From: Gemmatimonadales bacterium
GTDB lineage: Bacteria; Gemmatimonadota; Gemmatimonadetes; Gemmatimonadales; GWC2-71-9
Reading direction: 5' to 3'
Length of the DNA: 64,000 nucleotides
NCBI GenBank assembly: GCA_036501385.1
Contig: DASYAK010000074.1
Span: 27,646 to 91,645, forward strand
In this document: positions 25,956 to 42,695 of the stretch, one piece after another
Numbering within the stretch: position 1 is the stretch's first letter
How the letters are laid out: each line of letters begins with the position of its first letter
Made by a program: the position numbers and the translations under genes
The notes under the pieces: model-generated
What the model saw: the letters and a program-made list of their open reading frames with translations, nothing else
What the model was told of the DNA's origin: nothing
Database searches by the model: none

Positions 25956-26444
25956 ATGCAATACCAGATGAAGCAGAAGCTTTTCTCCTGGGGCGACGAT
26001 TTCACCATCCAGGATGGCACCGGGAATGATGCGTTTTTCGTTGACGGCAAGGCGTTCTCGCTGGGTCATCAGCTCTCATTCCAGGACATGTCGGGACGCG
26101 AACTCGCCTTCATCAAGCAGAAGCTCCTCGCCTGGGGGCCGACCTACGAACTTTACCGCGATGGCGCGCTCGCCGCTGTCGTCAAGAAGCAGCTCTTTAC
26201 CCTCTTTCAATGCACCTTCAGCGTCGATGTCCCGGGGCCAGACGATCTGACTGCCAAGGGCGAGTTCACCGACCACGAGTATCTCCTGTCTCGTGGCGGA
26301 CGCGAAGTTGCCACGGTCTCGAAGCGATGGTTCGCCTTGACCGACACCTACGGCGTCGACATCAACGATGGTGAAGACGCCGTGCTCATCCTCGCCAGCA
26401 CCGTAGTGATCGACATGGCATGCCATCCCGACGGGCGGCGCTGA
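25956..26444 (+). CDS. LURP-one-related / tubby C-terminal-like family protein
   Basis: [44 protein letters not shown] followed by a second [11 protein letters not shown] repeat, typical of the family. Confidence 0.8.
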
Positions 26445-27526
26445 ACTCCGAGGTGTCCGAAGCTTCCGGCCGTGTCGCTTTCGATCAGGAAGGATTCAAC
26501 TCCGCCGCGTGGCCTGACCCCGTCGCCATCGACGGCATCACCTCCACCGATCGATTCTTCTCCCGCAGCCACGCGGCGGTGCCGCAGATCGATCCCGTAA
26601 CGTGGAGGCTCGAGGTTGGCGGGATGGTCGAGCATCCCCGGCGCTATTCGCTGGCCGAGATCGGTGCGATGTCTCGCCATACCGTCACCGCAACCCTGGT
26701 CTGCGCCGGAATGCGCCGGGCTGAACTCCTCACAGTTGCACCGCTCCCGGGCGAACTGCCGTGGGGGGCCGAGCCGGCGGCCACCGGGAAGTGGACCGGC
26801 ATACCGCTGCCCGAACTCCTCGAGCGATCCGGAATCGCACCCGGCGCGCGATATGTCGAATTCGCGGGGCTCGATCGGGTCGACCGTGACGGGCGACAGT
26901 TTGGATTCGGTGGTTCGATCGATCTCGACAAGGCACGTTCCGGTGACGTGCTGCTGGCGACGCACCTCAACGACGAGCCGCTGACGCCCCGCACCGGTTT
27001 CCCGCTTCGAGCGATCGTGCCGGGGTGGATCGGCGCGCGCAGCGTCAAGTGGCTCGGGGCGATCACCCTTCGCCACGATCCATCAGAGAATTATTTCCAG
27101 ACGCGAGCCTACCGGATGCAGCGGATCCCCGATCCTGCACACCCGCGGGATGTGTCCGACGGGACCGCGCTGATCGAGGTCTCGCTCAACTCGGTGATTC
27201 TCCACCCCCGCGCCGGCGCGATCGTCGAGGCCGGCCCGCTCACTGTCCGCGGCTGGGCGATCGGTACCGGAGCGGCGCCCCTCGCGTCGATCGAGGTGTC
27301 GCCCGACAATGGCGTCCACTGGATACCGGCCCGCACCATCCCGGCGGGTCGCTGGGCATGGACGCTATGGGAGGCCTCGATGTCATTCCATCCGGGGAAA
27401 CACGTCCTTGCAGTACGGGCCACTGATGCCGATGGCCAGACGCAGCCCGCGACACTCGAGGAGGTGTGGAATGTCAAAGGGTACTGCAATAATGCCTGGC
27501 ATCGGATTGCGATCGAGGTGGCCTGA
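26420..27526 (+). CDS. Sulfite oxidase-family molybdopterin oxidoreductase (no signal peptide seen)
   Basis: FFSRSHAAVPQIDPVTWRLEVGGMVEHP, TLVCAGMRR (Mo-ligand Cys region), and a C-terminal dimerisation Ig-like domain. The start may instead be the GTG at 26453. Confidence 0.85.
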   Translation: MPSRRAALNSEVSEASGRVAFDQEGFNSAAWPDPVAIDGITSTDRFFSRSHAAVPQIDPVTWRLEVGGMVEHPRRYSLAEIGAMSRHTVTATLVCAGMRRAELLTVAPLPGELPWGAEPAATGKWTGIPLPELLERSGIAPGARYVEFAGLDRVDRDGRQFGFGGSIDLDKARSGDVLLATHLNDEPLTPRTGFPLRAIVPGWIGARSVKWLGAITLRHDPSENYFQTRAYRMQRIPDPAHPRDVSDGTALIEVSLNSVILHPRAGAIVEAGPLTVRGWAIGTGAAPLASIEVSPDNGVHWIPARTIPAGRWAWTLWEASMSFHPGKHVLAVRATDADGQTQPATLEEVWNVKGYCNNAWHRIAIEVA

Positions 27527-30649: not shown

Positions 30650-32599
30650 CTATTGCTTGGCAGCCCCACTGAGGAGCGTGGTCAAGTCGGCGATCGCGGT
30701 GCGGCGGATCGGCCGTGACCGGACGAAGACCACCGTCTTCTCGTCGGGGGTCAGCGCCGCGGCACCTTCGTCGGCACCGGTGTGAGTCAGCTGGCGGCGA
30801 ACGCCGGTGGTCCGGTCGAGGATTCCCAAGTCGCGGGTTGCGCCGCTCAGCATGAGGTAGAGCACCTTCGAGCCGTCGTCGGAGATGAACGCAAAATTGT
30901 CAGCTGGATTCAACAGCGGCGTAGCATCGCGGTCGCTCCCCATCGGCACGGCGTAGAAAGCGAAGCCACCCGTCCCGTTCTGGGCGACAATGGCCGAGTC
31001 CCCCGGGAGCGGATCGACCGCGAAGGCGTTGTTCCGTTTCCAGATCGGGGAGAACGTCCCGTTGTCCTTCACGACCATCGGTGCGAATCGTCCGTTGGCG
31101 TCGACGATCGTCGCGAGGATTTCGGAGCGGCCAGTGCGGCCAGTGAGGTTGTTCACGTTCCCTGACTGGGTGATGCGCTGCGGCTCGCCGCCTGCGATCG
31201 ACACCTTCCACGCATCGTCGACCCGCGAATCGTGGTCGGAGGCGAAGTAGATCGACTTCCCGTCGCCGCTCCACACGGGATTCTGTTCGCTGCCCGGCCA
31301 GTTGTCGAGCTGGCGCGGCGCACCGCCGGCAAGGTCAACGACCCAGAGGTCCGGGGTCCCATTGCGGTCCGAGATGAACGCCAGATGCGCTCCGTCCGGC
31401 GACCACGCCATCTCGGAGTTGCTTCCCCCTTGCACCAGCGTTCGCATTGCACTGCCGACGACCGGGATCACGGCGAGGTCGCTCATGTTGCCACCGCGAT
31501 CGATCCGGAACGCCACTTCCTTTCCGTCGGGTGAGAGCTGAAGCTGGGTGGCGCGGATCGAATCGGGAGTCAGCCGGCGTTCGGTGCTGTCGGCGAGCGA
31601 CATTGCCCAGATCCCGCTTTCGCCCTGCCCGGTGGTATACACCAGCTTGTGGGAGTTGGGGAACCACTGCAGGATCGACTCCTCGTCGGGGTCGTCGGTG
31701 ACGCGAATCTCCGGTCCGCCGGCGACCGGAACCACCCAGAGATCGTTCTGGCGTCCGCGGTCCGATTCAAATGCGATCCATTTGCCGTCCGGTGACCAGA
31801 GTGGCCTGGTGTCGTTGCGGACATCGCGGGTCAATTGGCGTGGCGCGCCGCCATCGGCTCCCACAATCCAGATGTCGGACGTGCCGGTCCGTCGCGATTC
31901 GTAGGCGATCTCCTTGCTGTCCGGAGACCACACCTGATCGGCCTGGAGCGCAAACGACTCGAAGCCGTCGGCGGTGAGTTGCCGCGGATTCCGCCCCGCG
32001 CTGTCGGCCACCCAGATCGTGCTCTTGCCACCGTCCTCCACGAAATAGGCGATCCTGGTGCCATCGGGTGACCAGTAGCCGATGTATGAATGGGTCTCTC
32101 CCGGTACCAGCGGTGCCGTTGTGTGGTGGCTGCTCGACACGATGAACGCCTGGAATGCGCCGCCGCCGACTCCCGTGGTCGCGGCGTAGAGGAGCCGGTC
32201 GCCATCGCGATTCCACATGACCGGAACCGCCGCACCCGATTTATCGGTGAGTTGCTCGGGCGCACCGCCAGTGGCGGAAACGACGGCGACCTGGAGGAGT
32301 CCGCCGTCGCTCGAGGCTGCCGCGACGCGCGACCCGTCGGGCGACCAGAGCGGGGGGACGAGCGAAAGTGAAGTGACCGGCACCTTCATCGGATGCCGCA
32401 TTCCGGAATCCGATGTCCAGAGCTGCTGGACCTGCCCGCTTGGCTCCCACCAATCGATCCGTGATCCGTCGGGAGAGAACCGCGCCAGGACCTGGTCGGC
32501 GCTGTCTGACGAAATGAACGTGACCGGCGGTAATCCCGACGGCTTCGGCGCGCACGCCGCGAGTGAAATCATGGCACCGGCGAACCTTATCCGCTTCAT
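30650..32599 (-). CDS. Periplasmic PD40/WD40-like (TolB-type) beta-propeller repeat protein
   Basis: Lipoprotein-like signal (GAMISLAAC). More than 10 repeats of the PD40 signature (WSPDG.RIAF, SDIW.V). The ATG overlaps the kinase stop (ATGA at 32596..32599). Confidence 0.85.
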   Translation of the reverse strand: MKRIRFAGAMISLAACAPKPSGLPPVTFISSDSADQVLARFSPDGSRIDWWEPSGQVQQLWTSDSGMRHPMKVPVTSLSLVPPLWSPDGSRVAAASSDGGLLQVAVVSATGGAPEQLTDKSGAAVPVMWNRDGDRLLYAATTGVGGGAFQAFIVSSSHHTTAPLVPGETHSYIGYWSPDGTRIAYFVEDGGKSTIWVADSAGRNPRQLTADGFESFALQADQVWSPDSKEIAYESRRTGTSDIWIVGADGGAPRQLTRDVRNDTRPLWSPDGKWIAFESDRGRQNDLWVVPVAGGPEIRVTDDPDEESILQWFPNSHKLVYTTGQGESGIWAMSLADSTERRLTPDSIRATQLQLSPDGKEVAFRIDRGGNMSDLAVIPVVGSAMRTLVQGGSNSEMAWSPDGAHLAFISDRNGTPDLWVVDLAGGAPRQLDNWPGSEQNPVWSGDGKSIYFASDHDSRVDDAWKVSIAGGEPQRITQSGNVNNLTGRTGRSEILATIVDANGRFAPMVVKDNGTFSPIWKRNNAFAVDPLPGDSAIVAQNGTGGFAFYAVPMGSDRDATPLLNPADNFAFISDDGSKVLYLMLSGATRDLGILDRTTGVRRQLTHTGADEGAAALTPDEKTVVFVRSRPIRRTAIADLTTLLSGAAKQ

Positions 32600-34002
32600 G
32601 GTGTTGCTCCTGGTTGCTTCGATCCGGCCAGCACGCTGTCGACCCCGTGCCGGATCCTGCCCACGACGGTGTCCTGCGCTTCGAGCACGTTGCTGACATT
32701 GGGGCTGTAGGTGTCGGCCCAGAGACTGCGTGATGTCACCGGGTTGGTGAACTGGACATTGATCCGCATCACGTCACCCGCGCGGAAGACCGTCGCCTCC
32801 ACCAACGCGTCGAGCTTGAGCTCGCTGGCGATCTCGCGGTCGGTCTTGGGGCTTCCCTTATACCGCATCATCTCCGACCGCGACGCCACACCGACGGTGC
32901 CGAGGCGCGACAGCGAGTTGGTGAGCGCGTCCTGCATTGCCGTCACGAAGACTGAATCTTTCCCCGAGATATCCTCGATCGGCATCACACCGATCCGCTG
33001 GATCCTGCCGGCGCCGCGATGGGTCAGCAGCCATGCGCCACCTACCACGATCAGGACCGCGATCACCAGGATCAACGCCAGATTCCGCCGCCGCGAAGCC
33101 GGCGGAGCACCACCGACACCCGCGAGACGCCTCGTCGTCGTCGGCGTGATTCCGCCGCTCGGCACCGCCGCGATGAGATCGAGCTGCGCCAGGATTTCCT
33201 CGGCGCTCTGCCACCGATCGGCCGGGTCCTTGGCGAGGCAGCGCATGATGACCTGCGCCAGCGCATCGCCAACGTCGGGACGGAATTCTCGGATATCCTT
33301 CGGCGTCTCCATCACGTGCGCCGCAAGAATTCCCTGCGGCGTCTCGGCCGTGAACGGCGTCCGCCCGGAGAGCATTTCGTAGACGAGAATCCCGAGGGCG
33401 TAGATGTCGGCACGCTGGTCGATGTTGGCATCGCCCATCGCCTGCTCGGGCGCCATGTAATGCGGTGTGCCGACCGCCATCCCCACGGTCGTCATCGAAT
33501 CGCCGCCGGCTGCCGTCACTGCCTTGGCGACACCGAAGTCGGTAACGACTGCGTGCCGGCCGCTCAGCAGGACGTTGCCGGGCTTGATGTCGCGATGGAC
33601 CACGCCGCGGGCGTGCGAATAGGCGAGCGCGTCGGCTACTTCCTTGAAGATCCGCACGGCGTCGACAATCGGCAGCCGCTTTTCCCGCGCAAGGCGATCG
33701 CGGAGCGATTCGCCCTCGACGTACGGCATCACATAGAAGAGGAAGCCCTGCACTTCGCCGGAATCGTAGAGCGACAGGATGTGCGGGTGATTGAACTGGG
33801 CGACGAACTTGATTTCCCGCGGGAAGCGCTCGGAACCAAGCGCTGCCGACAGCTCGGGCCGGAGCACCTTGAGCGCGACCTTCCGGTCGTGCTTGAGGTC
33901 GCTCGCCAGGTACACTGTGGCCATTCCGCCGGCGCCAACCTCCCGGTCGATGACATACCGGCCGGTGAGTGCCTCGGCGAGTCGCGCCTGGGGATCAGTC
34001 AC
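32596..34002 (-). CDS. Transmembrane Ser/Thr protein kinase with TolB-N-terminal-like periplasmic domain
   Basis: Hanks kinase motifs GAGGMATVY, VALKVL, HRDIKPGNVLL, DFGVAK, GTPHYMAPE. One TM helix (LALILVIAVLIVVGGAWLL). C-terminal IGVMPIEDISGKD module. GTG at 34002 (VTDPQARLAEAL) preferred; the longest ORF reaches 34173. Confidence 0.9.
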   Translation of the reverse strand: MTDPQARLAEALTGRYVIDREVGAGGMATVYLASDLKHDRKVALKVLRPELSAALGSERFPREIKFVAQFNHPHILSLYDSGEVQGFLFYVMPYVEGESLRDRLAREKRLPIVDAVRIFKEVADALAYSHARGVVHRDIKPGNVLLSGRHAVVTDFGVAKAVTAAGGDSMTTVGMAVGTPHYMAPEQAMGDANIDQRADIYALGILVYEMLSGRTPFTAETPQGILAAHVMETPKDIREFRPDVGDALAQVIMRCLAKDPADRWQSAEEILAQLDLIAAVPSGGITPTTTRRLAGVGGAPPASRRRNLALILVIAVLIVVGGAWLLTHRGAGRIQRIGVMPIEDISGKDSVFVTAMQDALTNSLSRLGTVGVASRSEMMRYKGSPKTDREIASELKLDALVEATVFRAGDVMRINVQFTNPVTSRSLWADTYSPNVSNVLEAQDTVVGRIRHGVDSVLAGSKQPGATP

Positions 34003-34115
34003 CGGACTCCGAAGATCGGGAGGGTACGCCGGGCGCAGCCAGGCACCTGGCCGGGCGGCGGGGGAGGGTAGATAGTACGGGTGAACCGGCCGGGCGGCAA
34101 TTGCCAGCCCGCCGA

Positions 34116-34142
34116 TGTCGATTTCGGCCGTTCTCGTTCGAC
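34116..34142 (+). promoter_or_regulatory. Candidate ECF-type promoter TGTCGA-N17-CGAC upstream of the YCII/DGPF gene
   Basis: TGTCGA at 34116..34121, a 17-nt spacer, CGAC at 34139..34142, 78 nt before the ATG at 34220. As I recall, ECF42 sigma factors are associated with a TGTCGA -35 element and a CG(A/T)C -10 element upstream of DGPF genes. Confidence 0.35.
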
Positions 34143-34219
34143 GATCATGCAGGACCTGGATTGTGGCGGCCACCCCGGCCGTCCACGGGAGCTACCCGAA
34201 ACCTGAAAGAGGCTCGACA

Positions 34220-34726: not shown

Positions 34727-35146
34727 ATGCTGACGATGGAACCCTATCTTTATTTCGACGGCAATTGCGGCGAGGCGATGAGATTCTACGCCAAGCTCTT
34801 CGGTGGGAACCTCGACATCATGTCGCACGCCGATTCGCCGATTGCCGATCAGGTCCCGGCCGCGAATCGTGACCGGATCATGCACGCGCGACTCGACATT
34901 GACGGCCGCATCCTCATGGCATCGGACGCCCTGGCCGGACATTCGTACAGCGGGATGCACGGCTTCTCGATCGCGCTCTCGTATCCCGACCCCGTCGAGG
35001 CGAAGCGAGTCTTTACCGCGCTTTCTGAGGGCGGCCGCGTCACGATGCCGCTGCAGAAGACGTTCTGGATCGAACTCTTCGGAATGGTCGTGGACCGGTT
35101 CGGTGCACCGTGGATGATCAACGGCGGCGCTGCCGCTCCGATGTAG
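34727..35146 (+). CDS. VOC/glyoxalase-fold protein (PhnB-like)
   Basis: [55 protein letters not shown], typical of the PhnB/3-demethylubiquinone-methyltransferase-like VOC family. Confidence 0.85.
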
Positions 35147-35174: not shown

Positions 35175-36290
35175 ATGAGCGGTGTTCGAGTCCTCGTCGG
35201 TACGCACAAGGGTGCGTTCATCCTGACCTCCGACGGGAAGCGGAAGCGGTGGAACGTCAGCGGGCCGCACTTCGCGGGGTGGGACATCTATCACGTCAAG
35301 GGATCGCCGGTTGATCCCGACCGCCTCTACGCATCGCAGTGCAGCGGCTGGTTCGGCCAGATCATTCAGCGCTCCGATGACGGCGGCAAGAGCTGGAATC
35401 CAGTGGGAAACGCGTTCACCTACGACGGCGTTGCGGGCACCCATCAGTGGTACGACGGCACGCCGCATCCGTGGGAGTTCAAGCGCGTTTGGCATCTCGA
35501 GCCGTCACTCACCGACCCCGATACCGTCTACGCCGGCGTCGAAGATGCCGCGCTCTTCCGCTCCACCGACGGCGGCCAGAACTGGCACGAACTCTCCGGC
35601 CTGCGCCAGCACGGATCAGGGCCGCGCTGGCAGCCGGGCGCCGGCGGGATGGGACTGCACACCATCCTCCTCGATCCGGTGCATCACGGTCGGATCTACA
35701 TCGCCATCTCGGCGGCGGGCGTCTTCCGCAGTGACGATGCCGGAGTGACCTGGCAGCCGATGAACCAGGGACTCCGCTCGCAATACATTCCCGACCCCGC
35801 CGCCGACGTGGGCCACTGCGTGCACCGGATCGCGCTCCACCCGTCGCGCCCGGACGTCCTCTTCATGCAGAAGCACTGGGACGTGATGCGCAGCGACAAC
35901 GCCGCCGAAAGCTGGCAGGAAGTGAGCGGCAACCTCCCCACCGATTTCGGCTTCCCGATCGACGTGCACGCCCACGAGCCCGAGACGGTGTACGTGGTGC
36001 CGATCAAGAGCGACTCCGAACATTATCCGCCCGAGGGGAGGTTGCGGGTCTATCGCAGTCGCTCGGGTGGCAACGAATGGGAACCGCTCACGAAGGGCTT
36101 GCCGCAGGAAAACTGCTACGTCAATGTGCTGCGCGAAGCGATGGCGGTCGACACCCTCGACGACTGCGGCATCTACTTCGGCACCACTGGCGGCCAGGTC
36201 TACGCGTCGCCCGACGGTGGTGACAACTGGGAGCCGATCGTGCGCGATCTGCCTTCGGTGCTCTCGGTCGAGGTGCAGACGCTGACATGA
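35175..36290 (+). CDS. Cytoplasmic BNR/Asp-box repeat beta-propeller (sialidase-like fold, function unknown)
   Basis: Six Asp-box-like motifs ([53 protein letters not shown]). No signal peptide. Confidence 0.8.
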
Positions 36291-36583
36291 TGCGAGTGGA
36301 ATTGCCGGCGCATCTGCGCACCATCGCGCGAGTCGATGGACTGGTGGAGCTGGAGCCCACGGCACCCGTGACGCTCCGATCCACCCTCGACGCACTCGAG
36401 ATGCGGTATCCGGCCTTGCGCGGCACGATCCGCGATCACGTCACCTTCAGGCGCCGCCCGTTCCTCAGGTTCTTTGCCTGCGGCGAAGACCTCTCCCACG
36501 ATTCGCCCGACAAGGCGCTCCCCGATGCCGTGACTCGCGGCGATGAACCATTGCTCGTAGTGGGAGCGATTGCGGGGGGATAA
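36287..36583 (+). CDS. ThiS/MoaD-like ubiquitin-fold small protein ending in Gly-Gly
   Basis: 98 aa. The ATG overlaps the upstream TGA (ATGA at 36287..36290). The C-terminus [10 protein letters not shown] is followed directly by a stop. Size and pattern fit the beta-grasp sulfur-carrier family. Confidence 0.7.
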
Positions 36584-41399: not shown

Positions 41400-42695
41400 A
41401 TGACCGCCACCGAAACCCATCGCGCCGTCGAGGCGGTCTGGCGGATCGAGTCGTCCCGCCTCATCGCCGGTCTGACCCGGCTGGTCCGCGACGTCGGTCT
41501 CGCCGAGGATCTGGCCCAGGACGCGCTCGTTGCGGCCCTCGAGCGGTGGCCGGTCTCGGGGATTCCCGACAACCCAGGCGCGTGGCTCATGGCCACGGCG
41601 AAACACCGAGCCATCGATCATCACCGCCGTTCGACGCGCCTCGACGCCAAGCACGCCGCACTCGGGATCGAACTCGACGCCGAGCGCGACGCGGAGGTCG
41701 CCAAGCTCGACGCCGCCCTCGACGATCCGGTCGGCGACGATCTCCTCGGCCTGATGTTCATGACCTGTCATCCGGTCCTGCCGAGTGAAGGTCAGGTTGC
41801 CCTCACCCTCCGGCTTCCCGGCGGTCTGTCGACTCCCGAAATCGCGCGCGCGTTTCTGGTGCCGGAGGCCACAGTGGCGCAGCGCATGGTCCGTGCGAAG
41901 CGCACCCTGGCGCAGGCGAAGATCCAGTTCGAAGTGCCGCGCGGCGCCGAACTCGCCGCCCGCATGCCCGCAGTGCTTGGCGTGATCTATCTCATCTTCA
42001 ACGAGGGATACTCCGCCACCGCTGGCAACGCATGGACTCGTCCCACGCTTTGCGACGAAGCACTTCGCCTCGGCCGGATCCTTGCCGAGCTCGCGCCGGA
42101 AGAGGGCGAGGTGCACGGGCTGGTAGCGTTGATGGAATTGCATGCGTCGCGTTTGCGGGCGCGCTCGGGCCCGGCCGGCGAACCGATTCTGCTTCTCGAT
42201 CAGGATCGGGCGCGATGGGATCAGATGCTGATTCACCGCGGTCTCGCGGCACTCGCGCGCGCGGCCAGTCTCGGCGAACTCGGGCCATATGGCCTCCAGG
42301 CCGCGATTGCGGCATGCCACGCCCGGGCCCGGGTTGCATCGGAGACCGATTGGATCCGGATCGCCGCACTCTACAGCGCGCTGGTTCTCCGCGCGCCATC
42401 TCCAGTCGTCGAATTGAACCACGCCGTCGCGATCGGGATGGCGTTCGGTGCCGAACCGGCGCTGGTGCTGGTCGACGCCCTCCGCGATGAGGGGCTCCTG
42501 GCCCAGTACTACCTTCTCCCCAGCGTGCGCGGTGACCTTCTCGAAAAAATCGGACGCTTCGATGAGGCCGCGGCGGAGTTCGAGGCGGGTGGATCACTCA
42601 CGCACAACGAACGCGAGCGGACGATCCTCCTCGATCGTGCCCAGCGTGCGCGGCGCCACGCCGCTGGCGTGCCGCCGGCATCGTCGGCATCTTAG
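41400..42695 (+). CDS. ECF sigma factor with long C-terminal extension (ECF42-like)
   Basis: AVWRIESSRLIAGLTRLVRDVGLAEDLAQDALVAALERWP, NPGAWLMATAKHRAID (region 2), LSTPEIARAFLVPEATVAQRMVRAKRTL (region 4), then a helical extension of roughly 230 aa. The ATG at 41400 or the TTG at 41391 could be the start. Confidence 0.9.
   Translation: MTATETHRAVEAVWRIESSRLIAGLTRLVRDVGLAEDLAQDALVAALERWPVSGIPDNPGAWLMATAKHRAIDHHRRSTRLDAKHAALGIELDAERDAEVAKLDAALDDPVGDDLLGLMFMTCHPVLPSEGQVALTLRLPGGLSTPEIARAFLVPEATVAQRMVRAKRTLAQAKIQFEVPRGAELAARMPAVLGVIYLIFNEGYSATAGNAWTRPTLCDEALRLGRILAELAPEEGEVHGLVALMELHASRLRARSGPAGEPILLLDQDRARWDQMLIHRGLAALARAASLGELGPYGLQAAIAACHARARVASETDWIRIAALYSALVLRAPSPVVELNHAVAIGMAFGAEPALVLVDALRDEGLLAQYYLLPSVRGDLLEKIGRFDEAAAEFEAGGSLTHNERERTILLDRAQRARRHAAGVPPASSAS

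Follow-up and report, generated by a model that had tools for sequence, protein, structure and literature searches.

The Question Raised by the Locus

What is a small protein with the free Gly-Gly end of a sulfur carrier doing behind the gene for a beta-propeller? The question is raised by two overlapping genes in a 64,000-nucleotide stretch of DNA from a Gemmatimonadales bacterium (GenBank assembly GCA_036501385.1, contig DASYAK010000074.1, positions 27,646 to 91,645 of the forward strand), referred to here as the window. The first gene encodes a seven-bladed Asp-box propeller and the second a beta-grasp protein of the ThiS/MoaD type, referred to here as the carrier. Beta-grasp carriers ending in Gly-Gly represent the bacterial roots of ubiquitin signalling and act as sulfur donors for several cofactors, and every characterised member known to us has a partner enzyme of known fold. 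An earlier note on the window had held that a sialidase-fold propeller is not a known partner of such carriers, and no report of an Asp-box propeller in that role was found in open-access papers and preprints, which were also found to hold no description of the pairing, its distribution or its link to ECF42 sigma factors as described below. Both genes have been annotated, misleadingly, in public databases and one propeller homologue has been crystallised; what is new here is that a carrier of the ThiS/MoaD type is paired with a partner whose fold has no precedent in that role.

A Translationally Coupled Gene Pair

The features of the pair are the following, with the kind of evidence in brackets.

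35175..36290, forward strand: seven-bladed Asp-box beta-propeller of the 3b7f family, predicted to be cytoplasmic, 371 aa (open reading frame and homology)
36270..36275, forward strand: GAGGTG hexamer resembling a Shine-Dalgarno sequence, within the last codons of the propeller gene and 11 nt 5' of the carrier ATG at 36287 (sequence)
36287..36290, forward strand: ATGA start/stop overlap between propeller and carrier (sequence)
36287..36583, forward strand: MoaD/ThiS/SAMP1-like beta-grasp protein, the carrier, 98 aa, with the C-terminus A-I-A-G-G followed by a stop (open reading frame and model)
36575..36583, forward strand: Gly-Gly codons and TAA stop of the carrier (sequence)

The earlier note had pointed to an ATGA shared by the 371-aa and 98-aa reading frames, as well as to the terminus ...VVGAIAGG directly ahead of a stop, and both are read in the sequence, the stop being TAA. 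Compared over 150 randomly drawn pairs of homologous loci, synonymous sites differ by about 0.62, which is near saturation, and non-synonymous sites by only 0.15 in the propeller and 0.19 in the carrier. Judged by this substitution pattern, both reading frames are real genes under strong purifying selection.

Linkage of the Pair Across Bacteria

At least 596 propeller loci were obtained by scanning a single genome from each species, and figures given below as "of 80" refer to the best 80. In these, the propeller is 77-84% identical to that of the window, and the genomes belong to more than ten phyla, including Acidobacteriota, Gemmatimonadota, Actinomycetota, Planctomycetota, Verrucomicrobiota, Chloroflexota, Armatimonadota and Methylomirabilota, together with Burkholderiales and one bin labelled Firmicutes. 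The carrier gene was detected directly downstream of the propeller gene in 80 of 80, with an ATGA-type 4-nt overlap in 58 of 80 and in about 48 of 69 metagenome loci. A reciprocal search from the carrier in metagenomes placed the propeller gene immediately upstream in 69 of 78 testable loci and at a distance of at most 2.4 kb in three more. At about 80% identity across many phyla, its conservation exceeds that of most housekeeping proteins. The pair occurs in three gene arrangements.

The second of these arrangements has the carrier gene first and still adjacent, as seen in the beta- and gamma-proteobacteria Ralstonia solanacearum, Burkholderia stagnalis, Mitsuaria and Pseudomonas aeruginosa. 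P. aeruginosa and R. solanacearum are genetically tractable, and the P. aeruginosa pair is presumably PA1355/PA1356, counted back from PmpM taken as PA1361. In this swapped clade, the propeller is 31% identical to that of the window, and the carrier comprises 89 aa, ends in ALSGG and is annotated as a "MoaD/ThiS family protein", exceeding the Pfam ThiS threshold with 27.7 bits. No BLAST match was obtained between the two carrier clades, and their profile-profile alignment (hhalign) is weak and colinear (E = 0.006), with a P-x-L-R-G-x-I-x-D motif and the Gly-Gly terminus common to both. In the third arrangement, a transglutaminase-like domain (PF01841) with an apparent Cys-His-Asp triad has the carrier joined to its C-terminal end. 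Five distinct proteins of this kind were found, all from one lineage and 67-100% identical (P0319, P0391-P0394; L095:1385-2287; L096:877-1875). The fusion gene lies directly 3' of a propeller gene in the three contigs examined, and the one propeller compared is 67% identical to that of the window.

Considering that the association outlasts both a swap of gene order and a domain fusion, a functional link between propeller and carrier is, on these comparative grounds, hard to doubt. The adjacency noticed in one genome is retained well outside it, in genomes and metagenomes alike and in either order, and by this distribution the pair is a widespread and extremely conserved module, not an oddity of this genome.

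Several details of the linkage deserve mention. Propeller identity reaches a plateau of about 80% irrespective of phylum, and the closest genomes are Bryobacteraceae, not other Gemmatimonadales; as synonymous sites are nearly saturated, extreme constraint is indicated, perhaps together with horizontal transfer long ago. Toxin-antitoxin modules (AbrB/MazE-like with PIN, or ribbon-helix-helix with MazF-like) split the otherwise overlapping pair at L076:11239-11888, L164:20-644 and L167:217-791. Genes inserted between propeller and carrier were considered as a missing component and rejected, since they are of toxin-antitoxin or SnoaL-like type and unrelated to the pair. The seeming fusion of propeller and carrier in P0257, P0305 and P0336 looks like an artefact of frameshifts. 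A stand-alone transglutaminase-like domain of 200 aa is common in Geomonas and others, but none was detected in the vicinity of any other copy of the pair.

The Gly-Gly Carrier

Structural modelling indicates that the carrier is a beta-grasp protein, as the earlier note had supposed. The AlphaFold2 model, calculated from an alignment of 46 homologues (pLDDT 89.9, pTM 0.81), has as its best Foldseek match in the PDB the archaeal protein SAMP1 (3po0, E = 2.5e-5, TM 0.75/0.82). Other matches comprise CysO in its complexes with BexX (4n6e) and CysM, human MOCS2A and mycobacterial MoaD, and Urm1, the Ahp1-Urm1 complex among them; the matches to SAMP1, CysO, MoaD/MOCS2A and Urm1 all have a Foldseek probability of 1.00. 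At the level of protein families the resemblance is faint. No Pfam match was obtained for the carrier at default thresholds, its sole family-level match is NCBIfam SAMP1, over the full length and with E = 0.005, and Pfam ThiS is weakly matched by 43 of the 46 homologues (best E = 1.8e-4). When 1.8 billion cluster representatives were searched exhaustively, relatives at E <= 0.001 were detected in only 1036 clusters at 50% identity, and the carrier is 65-75% identical across phyla. By these family comparisons, it belongs to a narrow and distinct branch within the ThiS/MoaD superfamily and is not an ordinary MoaD or ThiS.

The Gly-Gly terminus was expected to be kept in homologues if it matters, and it is present in 111 of the 120 closest homologues, in about 69 of 78 complete genome genes and in 75 of 80 metagenome loci. 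Overall, some 90% of homologues have A-G-G ahead of the stop. The last four residues, IAGG, are common to the carrier and E. coli ThiS (...VIAGG). In the carrier alignment, 30 of 98 columns are invariant, and the surface is conserved throughout.

These data bear on the possibility that the carrier is the genome's ordinary MoaD or ThiS, lying by chance beside an unrelated glycosidase-like gene, which we regard as highly improbable. Public databases do label carrier homologues as MoaD/ThiS family proteins or molybdopterin synthase sulfur carriers, a gene for a sulfite-oxidase-type molybdoenzyme (Oxidored_molyb and Mo-co_dimer; 26420-27526) lies about 8 kb upstream of the pair, and a homologue of moaA (GTP 3',8-cyclase) follows the carrier by 3-120 nt in one actinobacterial lineage (L052:11412-12395, L073:11476-12459, L078:11529-12512), this being the sole recurrent tie to molybdenum-cofactor genes. 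Nonetheless, in more than 160 loci the carrier is never beside MoaE or ThiG and is almost always beside the propeller, a linkage that persists through an order swap and a fusion. Its narrow family falls below the Pfam ThiS threshold, and at 98 aa it is longer than E. coli ThiS (66 aa) and MoaD (81 aa). The linkage data have largely refuted a housekeeping role as MoaD or ThiS.

Two further observations concern the carrier sequence. In two loci its reading frame continues past the Gly-Gly, into an AAA+ ATPase (L039:11110-12864, 585 aa in total) and into a YjbR-like protein (L010:1200-1886, 228 aa); possible explanations are errors in the sequence and genuine fusions that bury the Gly-Gly. Residues 50-90 (36434-36556 in the window), a stretch including the invariant C65, D68 and H71, locally resemble the C-terminal metal-site region of M20 amidases, hydantoinases and carbamoylases (PDB 5tp4), with E = 0.006 for the single sequence and E = 0.03 for the profile, a similarity that is probably due to chance or convergence.

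The Propeller Partner

The propeller matches PDB 3b7f over residues 4-366 with E = 1.8e-71 (phmmer), and its AlphaFold2 model (pTM 0.81) superimposes on that structure with a TM of 0.85 (E = 2.1e-29, Foldseek). The protein in question (Reut_B4987/YP_299179.1, from Ralstonia eutropha JMP134) is a seven-bladed propeller and a clear homologue; it is a structural-genomics deposit without a paper or a function. The one work found that analyses it (PMC2716378) gives it a "7-bladed YP_299179.1 family" of which it is the only member, notes that its blades close in an unusual way, assigns no function and does not mention a Gly-Gly carrier. Six Asp-boxes of the form S-x-[DNS]-x-[GA]-x-x-W occur at residues 67, 130, 186, 240, 295 and 345 of the window protein, four of them canonical and two degenerate, and BNR and Sortilin-Vps10 repeats are found by Pfam. 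At the N-terminus, residue 4 already falls within the alignment to the first strand of 3b7f, and no hydrophobic leader was detected, the top 10-residue window scoring 1.15 on the Kyte-Doolittle scale. The length, the six motifs and the lack of a signal peptide thus stand as the earlier note had given them.

The sialidase fold named in the same place was not borne out. Homologues are publicly annotated as "exo-alpha-sialidase", and a GH33 enzyme was rejected on three counts: Pfam BNR_2 reaches only 15.9 bits against a cut-off of 31.4; the closest structure is the seven-bladed 3b7f, GH33 being six-bladed and absent from the top 50 fold matches; and the secreted or surface location of such an enzyme is not provided for by a protein without a signal peptide. 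A GH74 xyloglucanase was likewise rejected, given that the GH74 cleft needs two tandem seven-bladed propellers and here a single one makes up the 371 aa; GH74 fold matches cover only part of targets of 685-778 residues, at 12-18% identity. After 3b7f, the next nearest folds are halves of GH74 enzymes, the protein-binding DAIP, Ycf48 with a D1 peptide bound, and the Vps10 domains of sortilin and SorLA with peptides (sortilin-PGRN). Sortilin Vps10 and Ycf48 share the repeat type and fold class with the window propeller and bind short peptides, C-terminal tails included. They differ from it in other respects, sortilin having ten blades and being extracellular and Ycf48 serving photosystem II assembly, with identities of 11-14% and no beta-grasp partner.

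A set of propeller residues is invariant in all clades (K12, H162, D167, H217, Q232, H234, R239, S240, F258-G-F260, D280, R294 and R320), and it looks like a functional face in the model, where several of these residues lie in or beside long conserved loops that AlphaFold2 places without confidence. One sub-clade carries an insertion of about 25 residues (...PKGESNKFVYD...) in blade 2 (P0122, P0125, P0336, L095:84-1274), and database propellers of 455-457 aa look like assemblies joining variants with and without it.

Absence of Linked Partner Enzymes

The earlier note had reported that no E1, MoaE, ThiG or JAMM peptidase is encoded in the window, and targeted searches agree. Queried with E. 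coli MoeB, ThiF, MoaE, ThiG, MoaA, MoaC and MoeA, the 64-kb window returned no tblastn match (best E = 0.11), and the sole match to a JAMM-like regular expression falls in a CHRD-domain gene. Beyond the window, no tblastn match to MoaE or ThiG was obtained in 87 related loci (about 1.3 Mb), CysM and BexX not being among the queries, and no recurrent JAMM-motif protein was detected near the pair in the same 87. All-against-all clustering of about 4800 neighbouring reading frames from 81 loci yielded no recurrent third gene. Known defence systems and bacterial ubiquitin-like systems, sought with PADLOC, gave no match, and the idea of an anti-phage defence system was rejected on that account. Since neither a recurrent third gene nor a defence-system match was detected, the pair is, in terms of gene content, a self-contained two-gene module.

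A Model for the Joint Action of Propeller and Carrier

That the two proteins act as one unit is indicated by their coupled expression, their near-obligate linkage in three arrangements and their extreme conservation. The explanation we favour, to which we give about an even chance, is a dedicated two-protein complex in which the Gly-Gly tail of the carrier, activated by an E1 enzyme encoded elsewhere, docks in the conserved His/Arg face of the propeller. The ATGA overlap would provide for the two proteins being made in matched amounts, and they would form a complex. The flexible A-I-A-G-G tail, as the working end of the carrier, would then enter the conserved loop face of the propeller, rich in His, Arg and Lys, by analogy with the tail of MoaD in MoaE or with C-terminal peptides in sortilin or Ycf48. 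It would be adenylated, and most likely thiocarboxylated, by an E1 of the MoeB/MoeZ type from elsewhere in the genome, and the propeller would use or receive the activated C-terminus, through sulfur transfer to a substrate or a related acyl transfer. We infer the physical complex, the docking, the activation in trans and the transfer alike.

A carrier-enzyme pair following the logic of MoaD-MoaE is preferred because a small residue followed by Gly-Gly, the hallmark of E1 activation, is strictly kept in two clades that BLAST cannot connect. The presence of a molybdoenzyme gene in the window indicates that the organism makes molybdenum cofactor and should therefore encode a MoeB-type E1 somewhere. 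There is a precedent for activation at a distance, in that CysO of the BexX system and similar actinobacterial carriers are served by one shared MoeZ encoded elsewhere. In MoaD-MoaE, ThiS-ThiG, CysO-CysM and CysO-BexX, as here, a free Gly-Gly beta-grasp protein is encoded beside one dedicated partner, often with translational coupling. The window pair departs from these systems in that the partner is a seven-bladed Asp-box propeller, in place of a MoaE, ThiG or pyridoxal phosphate enzyme fold, and in that no E1 is nearby, the carrier scores under the Pfam ThiS threshold and makes up a narrow family by itself, and identity across phyla is as high as about 80% for the propeller and 65-75% for the carrier.

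Covariation between the two proteins has given a first hint, suggestive only, of contact between tail and propeller. In 106 paired sequences, the strongest inter-protein pairs by mutual information with average product correction, at about 8 standard deviations, connect residue 95 of the carrier tail (I/M) with propeller residues 204, 103 and 261. Tyr, His, Phe or Gln at propeller position 204 goes with Ile95 in 70 of 76 cases, and Gly204 with Met95 in 17 of 26. On a neighbour-joining tree, changes of covarying pairs fall on the same branch 3 times against 0.7 expected and 6 times against 1.05 expected.

The covariation also fits with a carrier that binds the propeller in a purely non-covalent way, whether as a permanent subunit with a structural or regulatory role or as its chaperone, the tail carboxylate being held by an Arg/Lys/His pocket with no E1, adenylation or sulfur chemistry involved. 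Matched amounts, suggested by the start/stop overlap, would suit such a subunit, as would a carrier surface conserved throughout (30 of 98 columns invariant), the non-covalent hold that the related Asp-box propellers sortilin and Ycf48 have on peptide tails, and the finding that no gene for an E1, E2, JAMM or sulfur transferase recurs near the pair in the 87 loci. This alternative is considered unlikely, given that a strict small-residue-Gly-Gly end in two barely alignable clades (E = 0.006) is the signature of E1-type activation, that the last four residues are those of E. coli ThiS, and that solitary paralogues show a propeller without a carrier to be possible.

A number of points weigh against the favoured complex with an activated tail. 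An E1-like gene lies within 10 kb of the pair in only one of 87 related loci (L046, 6.5 kb away) and in none of the window, which leaves the E1 step a matter of pure deduction. We know of no beta-propeller that accepts a protein thiocarboxylate. The carrier scores below the cut-offs of the families it is assigned to, with 17.3 against 60 bits for NCBIfam SAMP1 and 13.4 against 22.5 bits for Pfam ThiS (PF02597). About 6% of carrier homologues extend 2-6 residues past the Gly-Gly, and no processing peptidase was found nearby. The covariation may be partly phylogenetic, its pairs having been chosen post hoc and the neighbour-joining tree being poorly resolved. Lastly, solitary propeller paralogues at 36-40% identity, on a Streptomyces plasmid and in Fuscovulum, have no carrier gene within 6 kb, and those at 40% identity retain the same invariant residues, so that the core activity of the propeller may not need the carrier.

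Putative Operon Context and the ECF42 Link

Upstream and downstream of the pair, the window holds features that connect it with a group of extracytoplasmic function (ECF) sigma factors.

34116..34142, forward strand: ECF42-type promoter motif TGTCGA-N16-TCGAC (-35 TGTCGA, -10 CGAC), about 78 nt 5' of the YCII start codon
34220..34639, forward strand: YCII-family gene with a DGPF motif, first of the run (Pfam YCII, E = 3.8e-19)
34727..35146, forward strand: VOC/glyoxalase-fold gene, YjdN-like, second of the run (Pfam 3-dmu-9_3-mt, E = 5e-12; Glyoxalase, E = 4.2e-8)
41400..42695, forward strand: ECF sigma factor of ECF42 type (Sigma70_r2, Sigma70_r4_2 and DUF6596, E = 1.8e-36), 4.8 kb downstream of the pair

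As the earlier note had it, the pair stands behind the YCII and VOC genes on one strand. The gaps in this co-directional run are 87 nt between YCII and VOC and 28 nt between VOC and propeller; the VOC gene matches NCBIfam YjdN with E = 7e-24, below the cut-off of that model. The promoter sequence, TGTCGATTTCGGCCGTTCTCGTTCGAC, is the only exact TGTCGA-N16-TCGAC in the window, and between 33.9 and 36.9 kb neither a sigma-70-like promoter nor an internal terminator was detected. We infer from this arrangement that YCII, VOC, propeller and carrier form a four-gene operon under ECF42 control, and the sigma factor at 41400..42695, which is followed by VOC and DinB genes, is a candidate regulator of it. 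An operon under a promoter of this type would make the module part of a stress-induced regulon.

The motif is also seen elsewhere. On the same strand and within 300 nt upstream of the propeller, it was detected in 13 of 77 related loci, where 0.7 would be expected, an enrichment of about 20-fold (49-198 nt 5' of the propeller in L014, L017, L027, L031, L034, L044, L060, L061, L065, L068, L070 and L082), and in several more it lies farther upstream, before co-directional genes such as YCII. Further positions are L004:6156 and L089:5530 (reverse strand) and 594 (forward strand). A sharply conserved form, TGTCGAT-N-CGTTCGAC, stands in many phyla ahead of the pair or of the YCII gene with which its operon begins. 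The P. aeruginosa pair is flanked by YciI and VOC genes with this type of motif, which stands ahead of both YciI genes there, and it is four genes from the ECF sigma factor PA1351, which has no anti-sigma factor.

ECF42 sigma factors carry a TPR-type C-terminal extension. In Sinorhizobium meliloti, the targets of the ECF42 factor RpoE10 have TGTCGG...CGTC promoters and include glyoxalase-like products, and rpoE10 adjoins a YCII gene (PMC6180224). The regulons of S. meliloti RpoE10, P. putida ECF-10 and the S. venezuelae ECF42 factors resemble the window in their -35 TGTCG(A/G) and -10 CG(A/T)C elements, set about 17 nt apart, a YCII neighbour, VOC (glyoxalase-like) genes and a sigma factor with a TPR-type extension. 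Unlike here, no propeller or ThiS-like gene is listed as a target in the regulon described (PMC6180224), and the motif is directly upstream in only about one sixth of the loci related to the pair. In loci that are mostly actinobacterial (L013, L028, L043, L050, L052, L054, L077 and L081), CGATGAGTTT-N(about 16)-CGTC replaces the ECF42 motif about 60-140 nt upstream of the propeller, which suggests that the pair is under another sigma factor in these loci.

The putative control by a stress sigma factor brings in a further explanation, namely that the carrier is a modifier like Urm1 or SAMP, activated by an E1 under ECF42 stress and attached to targets, with the propeller as substrate-recruiting adaptor or main target; as with Urm1, attachment may go together with the persulfidation of cysteines. 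The best fold matches of the carrier are SAMP1 and Urm1, that of Urm1 bound to Ahp1 included, and NCBIfam SAMP1 is its sole full-length family match. The operon would share a stress regulon with VOC, YCII and DinB genes, the short extensions past the Gly-Gly recall modifier precursors, and the transglutaminase-like Cys-His-Asp domain fused to the carrier belongs to a fold that performs acyl transfer via a thioester. To our knowledge, Urm1 conjugation requires neither E2 nor E3. The fusion and the extensions tilt slightly towards a modifier. Even so, this explanation is judged quite improbable: no E1, JAMM or other deconjugating enzyme is linked, PADLOC gave no match to bacterial ubiquitin-like defence systems, and a coupled 1:1 partner suits an enzyme-carrier pair better than a general modifier. 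SAMP1 and Urm1, archaeal and eukaryotic sulfur carriers and modifiers, resemble the window protein in fold, Gly-Gly end, link to stress and lack of E2 and E3. They are set apart from it by an identity of about 20%, as well as by the pair being bacterial and accompanied by a propeller, without a linked E1 of the Uba4/UbaA type or JAMM.

A broader reading, doubtful at present and worth stating, is that the pair constitutes an unrecognised and very widespread bacterial stress system of the Urm1/SAMP kind, or else a thiocarboxylate-dependent enzyme of a new class, with a beta-propeller as its scaffold. Under ECF42 control, a carrier activated by the housekeeping E1 may deliver sulfur, or itself, by way of the propeller, with E2, E3 and JAMM unneeded, and in one lineage the fused transglutaminase-like Cys-His-Asp domain may supply the acyl-transfer step. 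ECF42 sigma factors are a very common group, whose targets and inducing signal have no defined function in the literature consulted here, and this reading, if true, would offer a first biochemical handle on the purpose of the ECF42/YCII/VOC regulon. Solving the chemistry of the pair would in any case bring a new class of enzyme or partner into the biology of ubiquitin-like proteins and sulfur carriers, correct the misleading "sialidase" label on thousands of genes and render the function of that regulon testable.

Other Neighbouring Genes

Among the 81 loci clustered, the commonest neighbours of the pair are YCII genes (12 loci) and ECF sigma factors with DUF6596, which lie within 10 kb (11 loci), along with HxlR, DoxX, VOC, ArsR and DinB genes. 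In the window, a Ser/Thr kinase gene and a Tricorn/PD40 repeat gene (30650-32599 and 32596-34173) overlap on the opposite strand.

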